From Minisyncoccota bacterium (GTDB lineage: Bacteria > Patescibacteriota > Minisyncoccia > Phycocordibacterales > UBA2100): a stretch of DNA of 64,000 bases. Position numbers and translations under genes: made by a program. Where the stretch lies: NCBI GenBank assembly GCA_965267345.1, contig OZ253947.1:489964-553963 (forward strand), read 5' to 3'. The stretch's first letter is position 1, and each line of letters begins with the position of its first letter. The notes beneath the pieces are model-generated. The model worked only from the letters and a program-made list of their open reading frames with translations. It was not told the DNA's origin and searched no databases. Below, one piece after another: positions 23,284-58,896 of this stretch.

Positions 23284-24833
23284 GTTTTCTCTTCGATAGT
23301 GAATTCGTCGGCTGGGTCAGTACTGCGCCGTGCAAGGAGCATACCGGCACCTCCCGTGAGTATAAGGGCAGTGAGGGCTAAATACCACCAGAAGGAGCTG
23401 TGAGCAGTAGGTTTTGAGCTATGAGCAGTGGCGGCGAGTTGCGAGTGGGTAGTAGTTGGACGTGTGGGGTTGGTAGTTCGGAGTTGGGTGCTTGCAGTTG
23501 GGAGTGATGACGTGTCTCGATTAATCGAGGCACGAGCGGCATCGACAGCTGGTGATGGCGACTGCTGTGGCACGGGCGTGCCGATAAGTGCGTTGTGTGA
23601 GCGAGAGGTGGTCAGCTGAGGATTGGTAGGCTTCTGCATAGAGCGGGGCGGTGAGGCATTAGTACTCGTCGCCGGTGAGGTAGTTTCTGTAGTCGTTGCC
23701 TGCGGTGATACAACGGTTCCCACGAGCGCAGTGCTTCCGTCGGGAAACAGCAAGCTCGCTTCTTTGTCGACGCGAACAAATGGCAGCTCGAGCACCTCGG
23801 TTGCAAGGCGGATCGTGCTACTGGCAGCGACGGTGGTGCCGATGGGCAATTCCGCCGTGCGCACCGGTGAGCGCACGCGCCACTCGGATAGATCGAGCGG
23901 CGCATTACCGTGATTAGTGATCGCAATCCACTTCCCTGCTGCACCAATGCGCAAGGCGGCATCAAGCTGCGTAATACGTGCAGTGATGGTGTGTTCGTCG
24001 CGCAATGCGCCGTGCTCAAGCGTTGCCGTAATTACGTACTCACCCGCATAGCGATACGCATGACGCACGTCGTAACCAACTGCTTCTGTTCCGTCGCCAA
24101 AGGCCCACCGAACAACACCATTCGTGAGCGCGCGTCCTCGCGCATCGTACATTTCCGCATGCAGCGCGATGGGCGCACCAGCGACTCCCACAATCTGTTC
24201 GGGAAGTCGCAAGTGCACGTCTTGCGGCGGCTCAACACTTAGTGGCTCATAGGTGTACTGCGTGATATTTGTTACCGTTGCATCAGTTTCGTTGGTATTC
24301 GTATCGTTAGTGTCGGTCGTATCGCCAGTTTCGCCAGTGTGCTGCGCTTCGTTTGGTGTTGGCGTGCCTGCAACAAGCGCATCACCATCGCGATGCAAAC
24401 TGTTGCCGTCATTGGCTGCGCCGTCACTCTCGCTGTACGTCACCGAGTCGACAATGTCACCCGCGGCATTTTTTAGTGCAAGTGTTTCGCCAGTGTTTTT
24501 GAGGCTGAATGCGCTATCAATGAGCGTGCCACTTACTGACGGATAGTCGTCTTGGAAGGTAGTTGCATCGTCGGCAATAATCGCACAGGTTCCACTCTCA
24601 AGACTCCACAAGCCGCTGACGAGCTCAAGGCCGTGATTAGTTTCATTTTCATAAAAGACCCACCCGTCGAGTGTATGGTCGCCGTCGCTCGCGCACACTT
24701 CAATCCACTCATGATCGGCATCAGTGCTCTCGGGCGCATACATAATTTCGGTAATACGCACGTCCGCCGCAGCGATTGCCGGCGCGCACAGCAAGCACAC
24801 AATGAAAAGCGTGTACGCGCTACGCGCCATCAT
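23280..24833 (-). CDS. secreted lamin-tail-domain (LTD) protein with Thr/Pro-rich linker and C-terminal TM anchor
   Basis: Signal peptide MMARSAYTLFIVCLLCAPAIAA; LTD-like ITEIMYAP...EWIEV...GETLAL blocks; C-terminal WWYLALTALILTGGAGMLLARR helix. Confidence 0.7.
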   Translation of the reverse strand: MMARSAYTLFIVCLLCAPAIAAADVRITEIMYAPESTDADHEWIEVCASDGDHTLDGWVFYENETNHGLELVSGLWSLESGTCAIIADDATTFQDDYPSVSGTLIDSAFSLKNTGETLALKNAAGDIVDSVTYSESDGAANDGNSLHRDGDALVAGTPTPNEAQHTGETGDTTDTNDTNTNETDATVTNITQYTYEPLSVEPPQDVHLRLPEQIVGVAGAPIALHAEMYDARGRALTNGVVRWAFGDGTEAVGYDVRHAYRYAGEYVITATLEHGALRDEHTITARITQLDAALRIGAAGKWIAITNHGNAPLDLSEWRVRSPVRTAELPIGTTVAASSTIRLATEVLELPFVRVDKEASLLFPDGSTALVGTVVSPQATTTETTSPATSTNASPPRSMQKPTNPQLTTSRSHNALIGTPVPQQSPSPAVDAARASINRDTSSLPTASTQLRTTNPTRPTTTHSQLAATAHSSKPTAHSSFWWYLALTALILTGGAGMLLARRSTDPADEFTIEEKT

Positions 24834-26574
24834 TTAAGATACGTTCAAGCACCTCACGTGGTACTTCGTCACGGCGTGCATCGCCTGCGTCCTCCTTCCC
24901 ACTTTCTTGCGGCGTGTCGTCACGCTTGCCAATGCGGGGAAATAAATCTGGATAGCTCTGTTGCGGCTCAGATGGTGTCGTTGCTTCGCGCGATTCTGTC
25001 GCCTCGTCAGACGACTGTTTGCTTTTGGGTGTTGTATTGCTCCGCTCCGGTGCTTCTTCAGGTGCATCAGGAGCTGGTGTTTCGTGCTCGTCGGACTTGC
25101 TGGGCGGCTGTGGTTCCGCAGCGGCTGCAGCAGGCACCGCAGTGATAGCGCCGAGTGCTTCGCGCAGCGCGTTGCGCTGTGCGTCAGTACGCGGCTGCGC
25201 TGTTGGGTCGGCAGGTGTCTCTCCTCCGCCACCGCCTTTCTTCTTCTTTTTCTTCTTCTTTTTCTTGGTGGTCATCATCTCCTCATTCTGTGCGCGAATC
25301 GCATCTTCGATTTGCGCTCTGATGCGCGCGTACTTCTCGCGCGAACTCTCAACGATGCGATTGACGAAATTAAACGGCGGGTGCTCCACCGGCGGCAGTG
25401 TTGTTGCAGAAAATGGCTGCGAGCCGATCCCGTCAATCATGAGCGTCAGGTAAATTTGCGCAAATCCGAGATTCACTAAATCCTCCACGTAGAACGTCGG
25501 CTCAAAAATGGGCTTGAGCGTTTCCGCATCAAACGGCCCAACACGGAACGTGATGGTGGTGCCAACGTTCCCAAACACGGCCGAGCGAATGTGTTCGTCG
25601 ACTTGTTCGATGTACTGGTGCGCAATGGTGAGTGCGAGTTTGTACTTACGCGCTTCCGAGAGAATGTTGGCGAATGAGTCGTTCACCACTGACTGAAATT
25701 CGTCGACGTAAAGATAGAACGGCGGGAGCTGTGCCAGTTCAGCCTGTGTATTTTCAGCGCGACTCATCGCCGAGAGGTACATTTTTGTGGTGAGGATGCT
25801 CCCGAGCAGATCGGCATTTTGTTCACCCATGCGCCCTTTCGAGAGGTTCACAATGAAGATCTTACGCTCGTCCATGATGCGGCGTAAATCAAACGACGAG
25901 TGTGGCTGCCCGATGATGTTGCGCACAAGCGGATTCGAGACAAATTGCCCGATCTTGTTTTGAATGGCAGGTGTCGCCTCTTGTGTGTATCGGTCGGTGT
26001 AGCCGGCAAACTCTTCCTGCCAAAAGCGTTTGACGATCGGGTCGGTGACGTACTCGGTTACTTTTGCACGAAACTCTTTGTTGATGAGCATGCGGTTCAC
26101 GTCAATGAGCGTCGTGTCGGGATACTCGAGCAGCGCCAGCAGCACGTTTTGCAAAATGTATTCCATGCGGGCACTCCACGCATCAACCCAAATGCGCTGA
26201 AAGGCACTCATGAGACCCGCCACCACGAGGTGGCGCTTGTCGTACCCGACGTCCTCCATTACATTGAAGCCGACGGGAAACTCAGTATCAAATGGCGCAA
26301 AATAGACGACGTCTTCAATGCGTGACTCAGGCACAAATTCGAGCAACTTCTCAGCCGTTGAACCGTGCGGATCAATGAAGGCAATACCCTCACCGTTTTG
26401 AATATCCTGAATGGCCATGTTCTCGAGCATGGTTGATTTACCCATACCCGTTTTACCAATGATGTACATGTGGCGCATTCGATCGAGCGCCTTGATGCCA
26501 AACGGTACTTGCCCGCCGCGCGCGTCGGTGGCACCAAAATAGATAATACGCTCAGGATCGTATTCGTACGGCAT
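24820..26574 (-). CDS. TraG/TraD/VirD4-family coupling-protein-like P-loop ATPase (soluble, no N-terminal TM) with Lys/Gly-rich disordered C-terminus
   Basis: Walker A IIGKTGMGKST, ...IDPHG..., Walker B-like YLYVDEFQ; 14-nt overlap with downstream LTD gene. Confidence 0.6.
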   Translation of the reverse strand: MPYEYDPERIIYFGATDARGGQVPFGIKALDRMRHMYIIGKTGMGKSTMLENMAIQDIQNGEGIAFIDPHGSTAEKLLEFVPESRIEDVVYFAPFDTEFPVGFNVMEDVGYDKRHLVVAGLMSAFQRIWVDAWSARMEYILQNVLLALLEYPDTTLIDVNRMLINKEFRAKVTEYVTDPIVKRFWQEEFAGYTDRYTQEATPAIQNKIGQFVSNPLVRNIIGQPHSSFDLRRIMDERKIFIVNLSKGRMGEQNADLLGSILTTKMYLSAMSRAENTQAELAQLPPFYLYVDEFQSVVNDSFANILSEARKYKLALTIAHQYIEQVDEHIRSAVFGNVGTTITFRVGPFDAETLKPIFEPTFYVEDLVNLGFAQIYLTLMIDGIGSQPFSATTLPPVEHPPFNFVNRIVESSREKYARIRAQIEDAIRAQNEEMMTTKKKKKKKKKKGGGGGETPADPTAQPRTDAQRNALREALGAITAVPAAAAAEPQPPSKSDEHETPAPDAPEEAPERSNTTPKSKQSSDEATESREATTPSEPQQSYPDLFPRIGKRDDTPQESGKEDAGDARRDEVPREVLERILNDGA

Positions 26575-26590
26575 GGTATGTAGTATAGCA

Positions 26591-26820
26591 GTAGTGAGTT
26601 AGGAGTTTAGGAGTTGGAAGTGGGTAGTTGGAAGTTCGGAGTGAGGAGTTCGGAGTTGGTAGTGTGGAGTAAGTAGTGAAGAGTTGTTTCGATTAATCGA
26701 AACATGATGCAAAGTGACCAGTGGAAAGTGAGAAACTTAGTACATCGGATGTACTAAGTGTGGAATGATTTGTTTCGATTAATCGAAACAACTCACGCCA
26801 CACTACTCACTACCAACTCC
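26591..26820. repeat. composite inverted-repeat element: GGAGTT-rich imperfect ~50-bp terminal inverted repeats, each ending in TGTTTCGATTAATCGAAACA, flanking a 23-bp inner palindrome
   Basis: left arm ...GGAGTTGGTAGTGTGGAGTAAGTAGTGAAGAGTTGTTTCGATTAATCGAAACA; right arm is its approximate reverse complement; inner CTTAGTACATCGGATGTACTAAG at 26736-26758. Confidence 0.7.
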
Positions 26821-26827
26821 CGACTGT

Positions 26828-28087
26828 CTATTCTGCTGGCTCCAGCGCAGCTCGTGTATACCTATTCGCCGGGTCCCAGAGCATCCATGAGTGCAGGCCT
26901 GCATCGTAGGCTGCCTGAATTTGTGCACGCACTTCTGTCGGGCCGTAGTCACCGCCGTAGTCAAAGTCTTGCAGCCACGGGCGCAAAATATTCGGATCGC
27001 GCGCAGGTTTCTCGTACACGGCTGGTGTACTGGTGCCGATACGCGTATAGGCAAGCGCTCCAATGGTCGTGGTCGTTGCCGTCACGCGCTCGACAGCACG
27101 GTCCATTGAATACTTAATCACGCCGTAGACTTCGGTGTTTGGATTCGCGTAGCCGTTGAAGCCGCGTGGATAGTGCGACGGGTACACCATTGGGGCGATG
27201 TAGTCGAAGTACGGCGTCGCGCGCTCAAGTACCTGCCCGATAGTGAGGTCGTCTTTGTTGGTTGTCGTCATACCAAAAAGGTCTGCCGAGAGCGTCGGTG
27301 AGTGACCATTGGCATCAGCAACACGTACCTTTGACTCAAGGTACCGGAAAAACTTCTCAAGCTCTTGCGCACGGTTGTTGTAATCGGAATGATCAAACGA
27401 CACGTCGCTCATTGGCCCATCTGACGGATAGCGGACATAATCGTAATTGAGCTCGTCAAATCCAATAGCGTGCGAGTCGTGTGAAATGTCGACAATGTAG
27501 TCCCAAAATGGTTTCGCGCCGACATCAACAAACGATAACCCTTTGTGGTCTTTCCATGGCTCACCGACACGACTTTTGCTCTGTACCGCACGTGCAGGGT
27601 ACACCGATGTGTAGAGCGGGTCTTGGAACACGGCGATGCGACCGATAACATAGATGTCTTTTTCGTGCAGAAGCGCGATGAAGTCTTCCATGTCAGGCAC
27701 GGTGCATCCGGTACCATCGAGCACCTCTCCACTGCCGTCATCCTCGCGCGGAAAGCTCACCGTGCCCGTGTAGTCTTTAATATCAATAATAATCGCATTC
27801 AGTTCGGTATCGTCGATGAGTGAGATGAAGTGGTCGCGAAAATCGCTGCTCGATGCTGCACACTGGCTCATGTAGACGGCACGCACGTGCTCGGGTGTAT
27901 CCATATGCGCCACAGGCGGCACCACGTCCTCCTCGGGTTTCGTCACCTGTGGGTGCTCGGGGCGCAGATACACTAACTCGCTGCCGCCAAATACAAAGTG
28001 GGCAACAAGCGTGACACTTGCCACAATGAGCACTGCCACGCCGATGATGAGCGCGACACCTTTGTGTGACCGTACGAGGTTAGGCAT
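26828..28087 (-). CDS. membrane-anchored TIM-barrel glycoside-hydrolase-like protein (DUF4015/GHL type)
   Basis: N-terminal TM then ...IIDIKDYTG...IGRIAVFQDP... motifs; start at internal ATG 28087 that overlaps stop of upstream small ORF. Confidence 0.55.
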   Translation of the reverse strand: MPNLVRSHKGVALIIGVAVLIVASVTLVAHFVFGGSELVYLRPEHPQVTKPEEDVVPPVAHMDTPEHVRAVYMSQCAASSSDFRDHFISLIDDTELNAIIIDIKDYTGTVSFPREDDGSGEVLDGTGCTVPDMEDFIALLHEKDIYVIGRIAVFQDPLYTSVYPARAVQSKSRVGEPWKDHKGLSFVDVGAKPFWDYIVDISHDSHAIGFDELNYDYVRYPSDGPMSDVSFDHSDYNNRAQELEKFFRYLESKVRVADANGHSPTLSADLFGMTTTNKDDLTIGQVLERATPYFDYIAPMVYPSHYPRGFNGYANPNTEVYGVIKYSMDRAVERVTATTTTIGALAYTRIGTSTPAVYEKPARDPNILRPWLQDFDYGGDYGPTEVRAQIQAAYDAGLHSWMLWDPANRYTRAALEPAE

Positions 28088-28313
28088 GGTGCTCTTCAAC
28101 TGTCTCGTCGACTGGAGCGGTATTTTGCTGATAGCTCTCCGGCTCTGCATCGCGCTCCATTGCCGCGGCGAGCATCATGATGCGAATCGCCAGTGTGGCG
28201 ACTGCAAGACCAAGGACTACGAACATCACCGTATCCCAACTCGCGGGGAACCCCAAGAACGGCAGGATCGCAACGGCAAATCCGAGTGTAATAATGGCCT
28301 TGATGTGCTTCAT
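28080..28313 (-). CDS. small membrane protein (2 TM), hypothetical
   Basis: 77 aa, two hydrophobic helices, stop overlaps ATG of downstream gene (ATGCCTAA). Confidence 0.4.
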   Translation of the reverse strand: MKHIKAIITLGFAVAILPFLGFPASWDTVMFVVLGLAVATLAIRIMMLAAAMERDAEPESYQQNTAPVDETVEEHHA

Positions 28314-32901: not shown

Positions 32902-32941
32902 CGCTAAACCGCTATTTTGACGTCAAAATAGCGGTTTAGCG
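32902..32941. repeat. 40-bp perfect palindrome (CGCTAAACCGCTATTTTGAC|GTCAAAATAGCGGTTTAGCG)
   Basis: Read directly; overlaps 3' end of the wHTH gene and lies ~45 nt upstream of the CorC start / TATAAT-like box. Confidence 0.85.
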
Positions 32942-33876: not shown

Positions 33877-33934
33877 TGTTTCGATTAATCGAAACAATTA
33901 ATTTGGCCGGGGTGTCTCGATTAATCGAGACACC
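33877..33934. repeat. two adjacent perfect palindromes of the TCGATTAATCGA family (20 bp and 24 bp)
   Basis: TGTTTCGATTAATCGAAACA (33877-33896) and GGTGTCTCGATTAATCGAGACACC (33911-33934). Confidence 0.85.
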
Positions 33935-35639: not shown

Positions 35640-37095
35640 CAATCGGAATGAATCCACGACCACCTTCCGGTAGCCGTACCTTGTTACGACTTAGTCCTTG
35701 TCACTGAATTTACCTTAGGCCGCCACGAGGACGGACGTCGGGTACTCCCAGCTTCCCTGACTTGACGGGCGGTGAGTACAAGGCTCGAGAACGTATTCAC
35801 CGTGGTGTGCTGACCCACGATTACTAGCGATTCCAACTTCAAGTGGTCGAGTTGCAGACCACTATCCGAACTGAGGATACTTTTTTAGGATTTGCTCAGC
35901 CTTACGGCGTCGCGCCCCGTTGTAGTACCCATTGTAGCGCGTGTGCAGCCCGAGATGTCAAAGGGACATGCTGACTTGGCGTCATCCTCACCTTCCTCTC
36001 CCGTAAGGGAGCAGTCTCGCCTGACACTTGTAACAGGCAACGAGGGTTGCGTTCGTTACCCCACTTAAGGGAACAATTCAAACCACGAACTGACGACAGC
36101 CATGCATCACCTGCCCAACACCCTCGAAGGAACCTAGGTTTCCCTAGGCGTGCAGTTGGGTTTCAAACCTCGGTAAGGTTTTTCGCTTATCGACGAATTA
36201 AGCCACACGCTCCACCGCTTGTGCGAGCCCCCGTCTATTCCTTTGAGTTTTAAGCTTGCGCTCGTACTACCCAGGCGCCCCGCTTAACGCGTTAGCTTCG
36301 CCTCTGAAAGGGTCGATACTTCCAAAAGCCAGCGGGGAGTGTTTAGGGCGTGGACTACTGGGGTATCTAATCCCATTCGCTACCCACGCTTTCGTGTCTC
36401 AGCGTCAGAAATGCGCCAGTCTGCTGCCTTCGCCTTCGGTGTTCCCCATGATATCAACGGATTTCACCCCTACACCATGAGTTCCACAGACCTCTCGCAC
36501 CCTCTAGCTTAGCCGTTTCGCATGCGATTCTAGGGTTAAGCCCCAGGCTTTAACATGCGACTAACTAGGCCGCCTACACACCCTTTACGCCCAGTGAATC
36601 CGGGTAACGCTCGAGGCTCACGTATTACCGCTCCTGCTGGCACGTGATTAGGAGCCTCTTATTCATAGAGTAACGTCAATAGCTTCCTCCTCTATAAAAG
36701 GTGTTTACGCACCGAAGTGCTTCATCCACCACGCGGCATCGCTCCGTCAGACTTTCGTCCATTGCGGAAGATTCTCGACTGCAGCCTCCCGTAGGAGTTT
36801 GGACCGTGTCTAAGTTCCAATGGTGGGGGCCAGGCTCTCACCTCCCCTAAGCGTCTAAGCCTTGGTAGGCCATTACCCTACCAACTAGCTGATACTGCGC
36901 AGGCCGCTCCAGAAGCGAAAAATCTTTACCCTTGCGGGACTATCGGGTATTATCTCGGATTTCTCCGAGTTATTCCCGACTTCTGGGTACGTTCCTACGT
37001 GTTACTACCCCGTTTGCCGTGGGTCTAAACCCACTCGACTTGCATGCCTTATCCATGCCGCCAGCGTTCACCCTGAGCTAGGATCAAACTCTGAT
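35640..37095 (-). rRNA. rrs: 16S ribosomal RNA
   Basis: 5' AGAGTTTGATCCTAGCTCAGGGTGAACGCTGGCGGCATGG...; 3' ...AAGTCGTAACAAGGTACGGCTACCGGAAGGTGGTCGTGGATTCATTCC; universal 16S blocks throughout. Confidence 0.95.
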
Positions 37096-37422
37096 CTAAG
37101 ACGCACGATGTGCGCCTTTTCATGTGAACGAAACAAAAGAATACACATTCTATTTGTTCGTTTTGGATTCTCTTTCGTAAAAGAATATTTTAAGGGGCAA
37201 GTACAAAAATGTACTTGCGTGCATGATATGCCCGCTCCTAAAGTGGGCACGTCATGTGATGATGGTACTATACCGATGCTCTTTCAAGCTCGGTACGTTC
37301 ATCTGTATTCGGTTGTCAAAAAACAAACTAAAAACCGCCCTTGAGCGGTAGACGGAATTGTACGGGTTTTTTATCCCGAGTCAAGGAAAACCTGCACGTC
37401 ACGACCGTGCTATTCTTGGCGC

Positions 37423-37989: not shown

Positions 37990-38011
37990 GTGTCTCGATT
38001 AATCGAGACAC
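37990..38011. repeat. 22-bp perfect palindrome GTGTCTCGATTAATCGAGACAC
   Basis: Read directly; between secF stop and the 16S upstream region. Confidence 0.85.
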
Positions 38012-40976: not shown

Positions 40977-41018
40977 CGAGTGCGGGCTGTTTCGAGTACT
41001 CGAAACAGCCCGCACTCG
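40977..41018. repeat. 42-bp perfect GC-rich palindrome with GTTTCGA-GTAC-TCGAAAC core
   Basis: CGAGTGCGGGCTGTTTCGAGT|ACTCGAAACAGCCCGCACTCG; between sugar-transferase stop and secD start. Confidence 0.85.
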
Positions 41019-44814: not shown

Positions 44815-47925
<3,111 letters not shown>

Positions 47926-48203
47926 CCTGTGAGGAGTTCCACTAACCGCTTTAATTTTTATGCATGTGTGTTTCGCACGGAAAGACCGAGGTCGGCTAGA
48001 CCTCATAATCAAACGAAACACACGTCCTGCATGTCGATTTCAATGCTATTAAATTGTCAAAGATCATTCTGCGTGTTTTCTGTACATCCACGAGCGGCAC
48101 TAAAAATGACCGCTTGAGCGCGGCCCTTCGAGTGCTTTCAAAAAAAGCCCTCTACGGACGCACGCTTTTCTTGGACAAACTACTCATAAACACGTGGGCG
48201 CTA

Positions 48204-52422: not shown

Positions 52423-52772
52423 ACAGAAAACACTAATTACTGCATAAACAGCAACGTCGCCGCTGCCTGTTTCAATTCACTAAACGTCACGTCGTAGTAG
52501 TTCACGGCAAGAATGAGCACCAAGCTTGTCGAGAGAATGAAAATAAACCCAAAAACAAAGTTAAAGAATGTGGTGTTAAAAAGCGAATTCCTGTTCATAC
52601 AAACCATTATAGTAGCCACACGCCCCTACCGCCACCCACCAATACAAGGACCGACCTTGTTCATACAAGGTCGGTCCTTGTTGACTTTTGCTGTTATCTC
52701 TTGGGGTGGTTTAGTGGAGTTGGTTGGGGGTGGGTGCTTGGAGATGTTGTCGGTTGGGGGTGGGTGGTTAGA

Positions 52773-53414
52773 CTAGAGCTCGAGGATGAGGAATTCGCCT
52801 GCTTGGGCATTGTACGCAAAGCGCACACGGAATGGCAGTTGCGACCCTTTAGGGTACACAGCGATCTCGTAGATGCCGTACTCAGGGTCAACGAGCTCAA
52901 CGTCAGCAACGTCCCCTGTGTAGTACGCCTGTACCACGGGGTGTAGCGCTTCGCGTGCTGCGCGCTGCTCGAAAGCGACGCGGTATGAGGCACGTGCCGA
53001 TGGCTCAATGTACGTCAGCGCGCGCTCCGTGTCCTTTACACTCATTGCTCGTGCAAAGTAGTAAAGTGCTGATGCGGGTGAATCTGCTACCTGTCGGGGT
53101 CCTAAATCTACCTGTGGTACTTGCTGGGTGTTCTGTGCCGTACCGGCACCGGCCGCTGCAGCAGGCTGCGTGTTCGTTGTTTGGCTCTGCGCGGTTTCGG
53201 TGCGTGGTGTATCTGCACTCTCGTCGCTCTGTGGCGTTGTGGTCGCCGATTCGTCACCTGTAGTTTCTCTCTGCTCTTCTTCTACCATGCCTGTGTCAGC
53301 AGGAAGCGCAACCTTCTTATTTGCAGTATAAGCGTACAGCCCGATACCGACAGCGAGTAGAATGATCACCGCCGTGAGTGCGTACAGTGCGTCTTTGTTT
53401 TTTAATTTTTCCAT
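52773..53414 (-). CDS. hypothetical membrane-anchored protein (N-terminal TM, Thr/Gln-rich linker, C-terminal globular domain)
   Basis: start at internal ATG (MEKLKNK...), ORF track start 53513. Confidence 0.5.
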   Translation of the reverse strand: MEKLKNKDALYALTAVIILLAVGIGLYAYTANKKVALPADTGMVEEEQRETTGDESATTTPQSDESADTPRTETAQSQTTNTQPAAAAGAGTAQNTQQVPQVDLGPRQVADSPASALYYFARAMSVKDTERALTYIEPSARASYRVAFEQRAAREALHPVVQAYYTGDVADVELVDPEYGIYEIAVYPKGSQLPFRVRFAYNAQAGEFLILEL

Positions 53415-57842: not shown

Positions 57843-58664
57843 CTACAGTGCCAGTGCGTACGTTGTCCACCGCTTCTCACCCTCCTTCGTCACCACACCG
57901 TCGGCCACGAGTGCGGCCAATTCACGTTGAATTGTCTTCTCGCTCACGCCCGTCACCTCGCGCGCAATGTCCTTTACGTGCACCTGCTTCTTTTTAGAAA
58001 TAACATCGAGGATGCGCATGCGACGGTTATCGCTACGGCGACGTGTGCGCACCGATGTATTGGTTCCTTTTTTTACCGAGTCAGAATCAGTTTTTGTGTC
58101 CTTTATATTTTTTGTGTCCTTTTTAGTGTCCGTTACAGACGTGTCCTTTACATTGTTATTTTGTCCTTTAGAAATATGTCCGTGGGTATCAGTGAGTGGC
58201 GCTGCAAAATAGTCGCGCGGCAACTCAACCGGATCAGTGTGTACGCCGTCACTGGCACCGACGAGGAAGTGCGCAAAGTCTGCGTACGCATACTTCACCA
58301 CATCGGCATTCATATCAGACACCCAGCCCGCTGCATGGAGCACGTCAATGAGCGACATAATCAAACGCGTAGCTGCGACGACATCGTACACTGCGGCACC
58401 GGCTGCAAAGCGCACGCCCTTGCGCAAGCGGAGGGTGTGCGTCAGCAGTTCCTGCACTGCCGTGCGCACCGCAGCGCGCGCCGGCTCATCAGCTGCAACG
58501 CCGTTGGTAATTAAATGCGTGGCAATGGCCAGACGTTCCGCTTTTCGATACGCAATGTCGGCAGTGCGATTCGCGCCGAATGGTGCTGCACTCTGGTTTG
58601 CATCACTACTGCGCTGACGATATACGTCCAATTGATTTTCAGTGTTAAAGCTGTTCTTTTTCAT
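57843..58664 (-). CDS. transcriptional regulator with C-terminal winged HTH and Lys/Asp/Thr-rich linker
   Basis: C-terminus ...ILDVISKKKQVHVKDIAREVTGVSEKTIQRELAALVADGVVTKEG...; N-terminal domain unassigned. Confidence 0.55.
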   Translation of the reverse strand: MKKNSFNTENQLDVYRQRSSDANQSAAPFGANRTADIAYRKAERLAIATHLITNGVAADEPARAAVRTAVQELLTHTLRLRKGVRFAAGAAVYDVVAATRLIMSLIDVLHAAGWVSDMNADVVKYAYADFAHFLVGASDGVHTDPVELPRDYFAAPLTDTHGHISKGQNNNVKDTSVTDTKKDTKNIKDTKTDSDSVKKGTNTSVRTRRRSDNRRMRILDVISKKKQVHVKDIAREVTGVSEKTIQRELAALVADGVVTKEGEKRWTTYALAL

Positions 58665-58666
58665 GT

Positions 58667-58743
58667 TATGTCCGTTATATAACGGACATATGTTTACATA
58701 TTTTGTCCGTTACAAAACATGTCCGTTATGCTGTCCGTTACAC
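58667..58743. promoter_or_regulatory. operator-like array: 22-bp perfect palindrome ATGTCCGTTATATAACGGACAT abutting the regulator start codon plus three direct TGTCCGTTA repeats
   Basis: Read directly in the divergent intergenic region between the wHTH regulator and ftsK. Confidence 0.6.
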
Positions 58744-58896
58744 TTCTTTCCATAATACGAATTTGTCCTTTAAAAGCAAGAGATTCGCTTTTTCCGCTTT
58801 TTGTGTTTTCTGCCACCGCTACAGTAAATAGGTAGCCGCTGCACGCACTGTGCATGTGGTATCATTGCACTATATTTCCCTAAACGTGAAGCGACA

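Follow-up and report, generated by a model that had tools for sequence, protein, structure and literature searches.

A composite repeat element between the DUF4015 and ATPase genes

We analyzed a 64-kb stretch of a Minisyncoccota genome (contig OZ253947.1, positions 489,964 to 553,963; hereafter, the window), in which a composite repeat element fills the 253-bp gap 26575-26827, from the start of a type IV coupling protein (T4CP)-like ATPase gene to the stop of a DUF4015 gene. The element combines two copies of a perfect palindrome (P), one copy of another (Q), and arrays of a decayed 7-bp repeat, and it is absent from the orthologous gaps of related genomes. Our favored explanation, a tentative preference somewhat short of an even chance, is that this is a lineage-specific repeat nest occupying the space between the DUF4015 stop codon and the leaderless promoter of the ATPase gene, where it may serve as a transcript-end hairpin and insulator. 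It is not a 5' leader or attenuator, and it cannot be shown to be a miniature inverted-repeat transposable element (MITE).

Read along the plus strand, the element begins with about 13 to 14 degenerate heptads of the form nAGTnnG (26590-26684), in which AGT recurs at 11 successive 7-nt steps from 26612 to 26682. Over 26597-26684, Tandem Repeats Finder (TRF) returned periods of 7, 14, and 21, with 67 to 74% matches. The first perfect 20-bp palindrome, P1 (TGTTTCGATTAATCGAAACA), follows at 26685-26704, and the spacer behind it (26705-26734) holds three in-phase heptads between P1 and Q, with AGTG at 26713, 26720, and 26727. Q is a perfect 12+1+12 palindrome at 26735-26759 (ACTTAGTACATCGGATGTACTAAGT; core CTTAGTAC..GTACTAAG). 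The second perfect copy, P2 (TGTTTCGATTAATCGAAACA), lies at 26771-26790, with a start-to-start spacing of 86 nt from P1, and the right arm (26791-26827) consists of four to five inverted heptad units, with ACT at 26802, 26809, 26816, and 26823. Since heptads stand to the left of P1, between P1 and Q, and inverted at the right, the P-Q-P core is surrounded by two opposed heptad arrays.

The inner arms, 26681-26704 and 26771-26794, are 24 nt each, 100% complementary, and 66 nt apart. When aligned with gaps, the arms extend over 53 columns and are roughly four-fifths identical. The outer parts, which are heptad arrays able to pair in several registers, scored 29 when aligned alone, against 14.7 +/- 3.0 for shuffled sequences, and 1 of 1000 shuffles scored as high. 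The initial annotation of this DNA had described imperfect inverted repeats of about 50 bp, a family palindrome at the end of each arm, and a further palindrome in the middle of the element, all of which are present. The degenerate repeats that it placed beside the left arm are also there, but they were called hexamers, and both TRF and a phase table give a period of 7.

Both strands also folded far better than their shuffles. The minus strand folded at -81 kcal/mol (z = -9.7) and the plus strand at -90.7 kcal/mol (z = -7.5). The P-Q-P core reached -36.9 kcal/mol (z = -8.6), a single P only -7.3 kcal/mol, and the Q RNA hairpin -11.1 kcal/mol. The plus strand carries about eight GGA motifs, and on the gene-sense strand the heptad array reads as a C-rich stretch of 96 nt (44% C, 3% G).

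Position of the element behind a stop codon and upstream of a probable leaderless promoter

Both flanking genes are on the minus strand. The DUF4015 gene (26828-28150; Pfam PF13200, E = 3.1e-84) ends in a TAG stop codon at 26830-26828, and the TrwB/TraG/VirD4-like ATPase gene (24820-26574), recognized by Pfam and NCBIfam, is followed downstream by an LTD/PKD surface-protein gene and then by sugar-nucleotide genes. Beyond the source contig, the closest relatives of the ATPase are at most 85% identical, and several are labeled Candidatus Kaiserbacteria; the window genome is a member of the Patescibacteria (Candidate Phyla Radiation, CPR) of the Kaiserbacteria type. The element sets in 2 to 6 nt past the DUF4015 stop codon and is therefore in the 3'-end position of that gene.

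At the other end of the gap, the gene strand reads ...CTGCTATACTACATACCATG, that is, an extended -10 element (TGnTATACT), 7 nt, and the start codon. In coordinates, the -10 box TATACT lies at 26582-26587 on the minus strand, preceded by TGC, with 7 nt before the ATG at 26574-26572. The same -10-N7-ATG geometry, with TATACT or TATGAT, is kept in seven relatives with conserved synteny and is found at the starts of at least nine other window genes. From this arrangement we infer that the ATPase mRNA is leaderless and begins downstream of the element. The initial annotation had proposed a transcription attenuator or leader of the ATPase/LTD operon; because the -10 box is only 7 nt away from the start codon, transcription would begin downstream of the element, which rules out a 5' attenuator. 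Window gene starts such as 1122, 6197, 26574, 40934, 44446, 37423, and 63899 have a -10-like hexamer 6 to 8 nt upstream and no Shine-Dalgarno sequence, and leaderless-type starts seem to be common in the window genome and its relatives. Such starts matter when any upstream structured element in these genomes is interpreted.

The relatives, compared as stretches from other Patescibacteria genomes (designated by L numbers, such as L004, L009, and L034), share the gene order rsmI, small open reading frame (ORF), DUF4015, gap, ATPase, and LTD. The orthologous gaps are hypervariable, with lengths between 60 and 470 bp, and in the longer gaps there is a conserved ORF for a membrane protein of about 55 amino acids and a canonical GC-rich hairpin with a T-run 25 to 45 nt before the -10 box. 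This single-pass membrane ORF was located at 5774-5935 in L011, about 5670-5855 in L014, 2732-2905 in L026, 2721-2885 in L029, and about 5950-6115 in L031; in the window genome it is missing and the repeat nest stands in its place. No P was found in the orthologous gaps of the relatives compared, and short arrays of the same heptad type (CAACTAC/CAAACTA) occurred in the gap only in L013 and L014, two in each, with differing lengths. The element is absent from these gaps, and it is therefore specific to this lineage, in which it replaced the small ORF and the terminator.

A scan of 26300-27100 found no canonical terminator with a GC-rich stem-loop and a U-tract; terminators of the A-stem-T type are numerous elsewhere in the window. 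A second composite gap, at 52600-52780, has an unrelated sequence, in which a C-rich, G-poor stretch of 81 nt (49% C, 5% G) is combined with a perfect hairpin of 17 bp and a complementary G-rich arm. It ends in TATAAT-N7-ATG of a small membrane ORF and folds at -65.5 kcal/mol (z = -4.6). The two gaps have the same design, reached by convergence. Because of this convergence and because the element occupies the terminator slot, we favor a role at the transcript end or as an insulator.

The element has three components. The two P copies represent a hairpin- or operator-type motif used at seven or more places in the genome, Q belongs to a REP (repetitive extragenic palindromic)-like family found around and inside Y1 genes beside the same ATPase in sister genomes, and the two opposed arrays of the decayed 7-bp repeat are the third. 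In the mechanism that we propose, these arrays and the P copies may pair, so that the 3' end of the DUF4015 transcript would fold into a hairpin some 190 nt long (-81 kcal/mol), followed by the G-free, C-rich tract. The element would thereby take the slot, and probably the job, of the canonical terminator of the relatives, shielding the ATPase promoter against read-through, and its P copies are also likely to be bound by a factor that recognizes their sequence.

Several observations weigh against this explanation. The evidence for a terminator or insulator role consists of position and folding, and a U-tract is missing from the hairpin. The long-range helix could form equally well on both strands, and also in DNA. 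No homologue of the element was found in the relatives compared, and no factor for P was found in the window or tied to the source genome. The P sites in the window overlap no core promoter, P1 and P2 being centered at about -120 and -206, respectively, and the heptad arrays are functionally unexplained. Taken alone, it is a curiosity of this one locus, where a repeat nest stands in place of a terminator.

Palindrome P within the window

Scanning for P at up to three mismatches, we found seven sites in the window, where 0.00 were expected, and all were within 17.5 kb (23.5-41.0 kb). Six of the seven are in the non-genic 13% of the window (probability, 3.5e-5); when the sites were taken as five independent places, the clustering had a probability of 0.02. 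Apart from P1 and P2, a gene for a DUF350 membrane protein is preceded by a second doublet, made up of a site at 33877-33896 and the TGTCTCGATTAATCGAGACA variant at 33913-33932, and a single variant (37991-38010) lies between convergent genes. A 42-bp perfect palindrome at 40977-41018 (-37.3 kcal/mol) has the P variant TGTTTCGAGTACTCGAAACA at its apex and is located between a sugar-transferase gene, whose stop codon it follows by 8 nt, and the -10 box of secD, which comes 28 nt further downstream. The variants are symmetric within the genome, with TGTCTCGATTAATCGAGACA occurring twice and TGTTTCGAGTACTCGAAACA at the apex of the 42-bp palindrome, and the conserved core is TTCGATTAATCGAA.

The one genic site belongs to a third module of heptad array and P, which lies in frame in the low-complexity linker of the LTD gene (23436-23532), where the palindrome TGTCTCGATTAATCGAGGCA encodes ASINRDT. 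The heptad array of this module aligned to the left arm of the element with a local score of 50, against 16.1 +/- 2.7 for shuffled sequences, and keeps the same 25-nt register to the palindrome. The module is thus homologous to the left arm, so that copying has produced the unit of heptads and P at least three times over 3.4 kb. In the protein alignment, the linker that contains the module is hypervariable and the C-terminal membrane anchor is kept.

Two properties of P bear on how it might be recognized. Many P sites are extended by site-specific flanks to perfect palindromes of 26 to 42 bp, which indicates selection for self-pairing as a hairpin rather than for protein contacts. P alone folds weakly, which favors sequence-specific recognition. 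A canonical parS site was considered and rejected: the ends of P resemble TGTTTC..GAAACA, but the window has no canonical parS, and the P sites are paired and intergenic. No match to the ParB family was found among the scanned subset of window ORFs, all of them from 22 kb upward.

P-type palindromes around a YerC/TrpR-like gene in other Patescibacteria

Exact P was found at only 8 genome loci and 11 metagenome loci in public collections, and we discarded the idea of a motif widespread in Patescibacteria. In Pedobacter, Anaerolineae, and similar taxa, P singletons lie at the apex of terminator-like hairpins; by our own estimate, such singletons in unrelated phyla are about as many as chance gives across so many genomes. 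The exception is an AT-rich lineage of Patescibacteria, in which identical P copies lie on both sides of a YerC-like gene encoding 138 amino acids. Homologues of this gene (67% and 74% identity) keep the synteny of M50 peptidase, L28, the gene itself, and ComEC-like genes. P-type palindromes occupy the same two to three positions around the gene in three diverged lineages and co-vary between them (TTTCGATTAATCGAAA, TTTCGGTTAACCGAAA, and CTTCGGTTAACCGAAG), and the upstream copy abuts the -10 box of its leaderless promoter in L004, L033, and L034.

The YerC/TrpR-like gene of about 135 codons beside ComEC-like genes was located at 3221-3723 in L004, 2400-2960 in L033, and 1010-1530 in L034, and the cores of the bracketing palindromes co-vary as TTCGATTAATCGAA versus TTCGGTTAACCGAA. 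A first homologue search returned 12 family members, and a profile search returned 1292 clusters at 50% identity. Several members are named YerC by the Joint Genome Institute (JGI). The protein had no Pfam or NCBIfam match; its structural model has a pLDDT of 63, and its best Foldseek matches are to E. coli TrpR at an E value of about 0.5. Neither tblastn nor the family hidden Markov model detected such a regulator in the window or in the loci of the relatives, and no member found by the profile search was tied to the source contig. Operators of the TrpR family are 20-bp palindromes and often autoregulatory, and about half of the hisR genes are autoregulated (PMC9413887).

As a separate observation, P-like cores (CGATTAATCG) lie inside rsmI of L032 and L009 at the same codon positions, with no indel relative to orthologues. 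Near-perfect Q-like and P-like palindromes were seen within this coding sequence at 1810-1838 and 2149-2170 in L032 and in the rsmI gene of L009 (4732-5424). If confirmed, a conserved palindrome core (TTCGRTTAAYCGAA) common to very different Patescibacteria would be of wider importance, as would its tie, in one lineage, to a large uncharacterized YerC/TrpR-like family beside DNA-uptake genes.

Palindrome Q and Y1 genes of related genomes

The core of Q (CTTAGTA..TACTAAG) occurs once in the window. In L009/L010 and L032, several copies of this core lie within and near a Y1_Tnp (PF01797) gene. This Y1 gene lies between the ATPase gene and the LTD/ComEA-like genes, at 7840-8556 in L009, 8001-8760 in L031, and 5960-6745 in L032. 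Its product matched the NCBIfam model for the REP-associated tyrosine transposase (RAYT) weakly, at 30.5 bits and below the cut-off, and some homologues are named RayT by JGI. REP-like palindromes flank the Y1 genes of the relatives and two more lie in frame inside them; one of these two encodes a conserved HQL[S/G]...[T/S]KLV, in which S-T and G-S covary among family members. For tnpA-REP genes, both flanking REP units and in-frame REP insertions have been described (PMC6006769). Because its core is common to the palindromes around the Y1 genes of the relatives, Q is a REP-type unit of this clade.

The window has no Y1 gene, including at the syntenic place between the ATPase and LTD genes, and the source contig was not represented among the 120 best Y1 homologues listed. 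A narrow literature search combining RAYT with Candidate Phyla Radiation returned nothing relevant. If confirmed, REP-like palindrome families and RAYT-like Y1 genes in Patescibacteria of the Kaiserbacteria type would be of general interest. Relaxases are missing near most T4CPs of Patescibacteria (PMC12102498), and the Y1 gene of the relatives could be the "very different relaxase" asked about in that study. A Y1 HUH gene kept between the T4CP-like ATPase and ComEA-like genes would, if confirmed, bear on why the coupling proteins of Patescibacteria lack relaxases.

Alternative explanations

The strongest rival to the repeat-nest explanation is REPIN-like mobility (a REPIN being a REP doublet that forms a hairpin), although we consider it unlikely. 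Here the inverted REP-type units (GAGT plus P) would form a hairpin in single-stranded DNA and be mobilized in trans by a RAYT-like Y1 (HUH) enzyme encoded elsewhere, and the LTD copy would be an in-frame insertion. The inverted doublet forms a hairpin with its 86-nt spacing, as compared with the published REPIN spacings of 71 and 110 bp (PMC3116915), a second doublet is present at 33877/33913, the P sites are strongly biased to intergenic space, and their variants are symmetric within the genome. In addition, the unit of heptads and P was duplicated into a coding region with the frame intact, as is known for REP insertions (PMC6006769), the element is absent from orthologous gaps, and the lineage has RAYT-like Y1 genes with flanking REP-like palindromes, a Q unit of which kind is nested in the element. 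However, no Y1 gene was found in the window or, among the 120 best homologues listed, on the source contig, and the Y1 genes of relatives are flanked by Q, not P. P is a perfect palindrome with neither a loop nor a GT[AG]G foot, and only seven copies were seen, clustered in 17.5 kb. The P core is also kept at orthologous positions across diverged AT-rich Patescibacteria, unlike REPs, which turn over fast. The non-autonomous mobile element suggested by the initial annotation survives in part: the element is specific to its lineage and consists of repeated palindromes, from families spread over the genome, that can form hairpins, and the RAYT-like Y1 genes and Q-type palindromes of sister genomes make a REP/REPIN-like origin plausible, but a MITE is not supported.

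Rather improbable is a pair of double-stranded DNA operators, in which the two P copies, 86 bp or about eight helical turns apart, would bind a dimeric TrpR/YerC-like regulator that acts on the ATPase-LTD operon from an upstream position, looping being one possibility, and the hairpin would be incidental. P is a 20-bp palindrome with TGT...ACA ends, the operator architecture of the TrpR family (PMC9413887). The identical 20-mer that abuts the -10 box of the YerC-like gene, with co-varying variants in two more lineages, forms a pattern of autoregulation; the regulator family is large (1292 clusters at 50% identity), several members are named YerC, and E. coli TrpR is the best fold match. Another perfect palindrome in the window, beside a helix-turn-helix (HTH) gene, looks clearly like an operator. 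Against this stand the failure to find a regulator gene in the window, the weak structural model (pLDDT 63, Foldseek E about 0.5) with no Pfam or NCBIfam match, and the extension of many sites to perfect palindromes of 26 to 42 bp, which points to hairpin selection. In the window, the P sites at -64, -120, and -206, as well as those between convergent genes or within a coding region, all stand clear of core promoters.

We assign a similarly low probability to functionless debris. In that case, a 7-bp microsatellite seeded by the promoter-proximal ACTAACT would have expanded and decayed, template switching would have made the palindromes and the inverted copy, and the gap would tolerate such repeats because the ATPase gene has its own promoter. 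The degeneracy of the heptads (67 to 74% matches), the short arrays of the same type and differing lengths in the same gap of L013 and L014, the hypervariability of the gap among relatives (60 to 470 bp), and similar heptad satellites in unrelated DNA are consistent with this history. The genome is compact, however, with 13% non-genic sequence, a long-hairpin architecture arose independently at 52.6-52.8 kb, and the P core is conserved across lineages. A phase-variable heptad tract was rejected, as slippage would require less degenerate repeats.

An RNA function, whether as a structured small RNA or as an attenuator or riboswitch-like leader acting in cis, is highly improbable. The folding z-scores are very low on both strands and the plus strand has about eight GGA motifs, but Rfam gave no match at its gathering scores, and at E <= 10 it gave only miRNA-hairpin matches of 14 to 20 bits, against cut-offs of 70 to 130 bits. 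The scan found no promoter- or terminator-like sites around the element, which also speaks against the structured noncoding RNA of the initial annotation. The element lies upstream of the conserved -10 box of a leaderless gene and is absent from all relatives compared. A CsrA sponge made of the eight GGA motifs was likewise dismissed, because the scan gave neither a promoter nor a terminator for an RNA from the plus strand.

Equally remote is an origin-of-transfer (oriT)-like or DNA-processing site, in which a Y1 HUH enzyme belonging to a DNA-translocation module of Patescibacteria would recognize and nick the hairpins and iterons beside the T4CP-like ATPase. The oriT regions of conjugative plasmids contain a mix of inverted and direct repeats, which the element resembles. 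The trio of T4CP-like ATPase, Y1 HUH, and ComEA-like/LTD genes is conserved in relatives, and the absence of relaxases near most Patescibacteria T4CPs (PMC12102498) would fit. However, the window genome has no Y1 gene at the locus, the element is absent in relatives that have Y1, and no nic-site motif is known for the system; the idea is drawn purely by analogy. In a broader form, to which we give a scarcely greater chance, the P and Q hairpins and the heptad iterons would be oriT-like or uptake-signal-like sites of a module made of the T4CP-like ATPase, the Y1 HUH enzyme as an unconventional relaxase, and the ComEA-like LTD protein, and the P-type hairpins by ComEC and YerC-like genes elsewhere would belong to the same DNA-uptake regulon.

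Other features of the window

Directly upstream of a minus-strand gene for an ArsR/DeoR-like HTH protein (57843-58664), the stretch 58640-58760 has a 24-bp perfect palindrome (TATGTCCGTTATATAACGGACATA) and, further upstream, three direct TAACGGACA repeats; together they are probably an autoregulatory operator array. At 32902-32941, a 40-bp perfect palindrome without a loop (CGCTAAACCGCTATTTTGACGTCAAAATAGCGGTTTAGCG) stands 26 nt upstream of the TATAAT of a CNNM/CBS gene. Other long perfect palindromes centered on ATTAAT were seen in relatives (54 bp in L029 and 32 bp in L031), at a similar distance from the rsmI -10 box. The 16S (35642-37099) and 23S (44849-47927) rRNA genes are unlinked, with 7.7 kb of protein genes between them. 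The 23S match is 3079 nt long, against a model of 2925 nt, and contains a tRNA-like match with an odd anticodon loop (46593-46669), which suggests that the 23S rRNA gene carries an insertion.

Relation to known repeats, operators, and terminators

We compared the element with MITEs, which the initial annotation had considered. Terminal inverted repeats are present (53 columns, with the inner 24 nt perfect). On reading the sequence, the flanks ..GAGGAGTTC / GGAGTTGG ... CCAACTCC / CGACTGTC.. share no direct repeat that could be a target-site duplication. The composite occurs once in the 64 kb, exact-P scans of genome and metagenome collections gave no other such doublet, and the orthologous gaps have none. 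A MITE is thus not supported; the terminal repeats are decayed 7-bp arrays, and P and Q also occur singly elsewhere. Some MITEs tolerate in-frame insertion, such as the Rickettsia palindromic elements and the Neisseria Correia elements. Like these, the present element is noncoding, within their range of about 100 to 250 bp, has inverted termini and a strong hairpin, and has one related in-frame copy. Unlike them, it has no target-site duplication, the 64 kb revealed neither a second whole copy nor an autonomous partner, and it is a composite of sub-units that recur independently.

The element was also compared with systems of REPs, REPINs, and bacterial interspersed mosaic elements (BIMEs) with their RAYTs. 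The palindromes are multi-copy and extragenic (seven P sites against none expected, six of them non-genic), and the inverted doublet forms a hairpin with its spacer, in which 26681-26704 pairs with 26771-26794. Shared features also include several families of short palindromes per genome with different families clustered in one gap, inverted doublets that give a long hairpin (PMC3116915, PMC6006769), and, in relatives, REP-type units that flank a Y1 gene and also occur within its reading frame. REPs have a guide tetranucleotide, GT[AG]G, at the hairpin foot (PMC6006769), whereas P is flanked by GAGT/ACTC and GTAG occurs only in heptads at least 12 nt away. The element further differs in its loop-less P, its few and clustered copies, the absence of a RAYT from the window, a P core conserved at orthologous sites across very distant lineages, and arms made of heptad arrays.

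With the operators of the TrpR family (TrpR and HisR/YerC), P shares a dyad-symmetric 20-bp site, the TGT..ACA ends, and, in other Patescibacteria, copies at the promoter of the regulator itself. It differs in its core sequence, in the lack of a cognate regulator found here, in sites far upstream of promoters, and in palindromes longer than 20 bp; promoter overlap was seen in L004, L033, and L034 and at none of the window sites. Arrays of 7-bp units are known from the omega-repressor iterons of pSM19035 and from the repeats upstream of the H. influenzae hmw genes. In both, as in the element, contiguous 7-bp units lie directly upstream of a -10 box, but the units of the element are degenerate and no binding protein is known for them. 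Among plasmids and phages, the heptad arm resembled only a near-perfect (GGGGAGT/GAGGAGT)n satellite at the end of the record of the Isosphaera pallida plasmid pISOP01 (L035, 56165-56340).

Finally, the element was compared with terminators. It differs from intrinsic terminators in having no U-tract and a hairpin of about 190 nt. Like intrinsic and Rho-dependent terminators, it lies just past a stop codon, in the position of the terminator in relatives, and forms a very stable hairpin, and the 96-nt tract (44% C, 3% G) that follows the hairpin resembles the rut site of Rho-dependent terminators.

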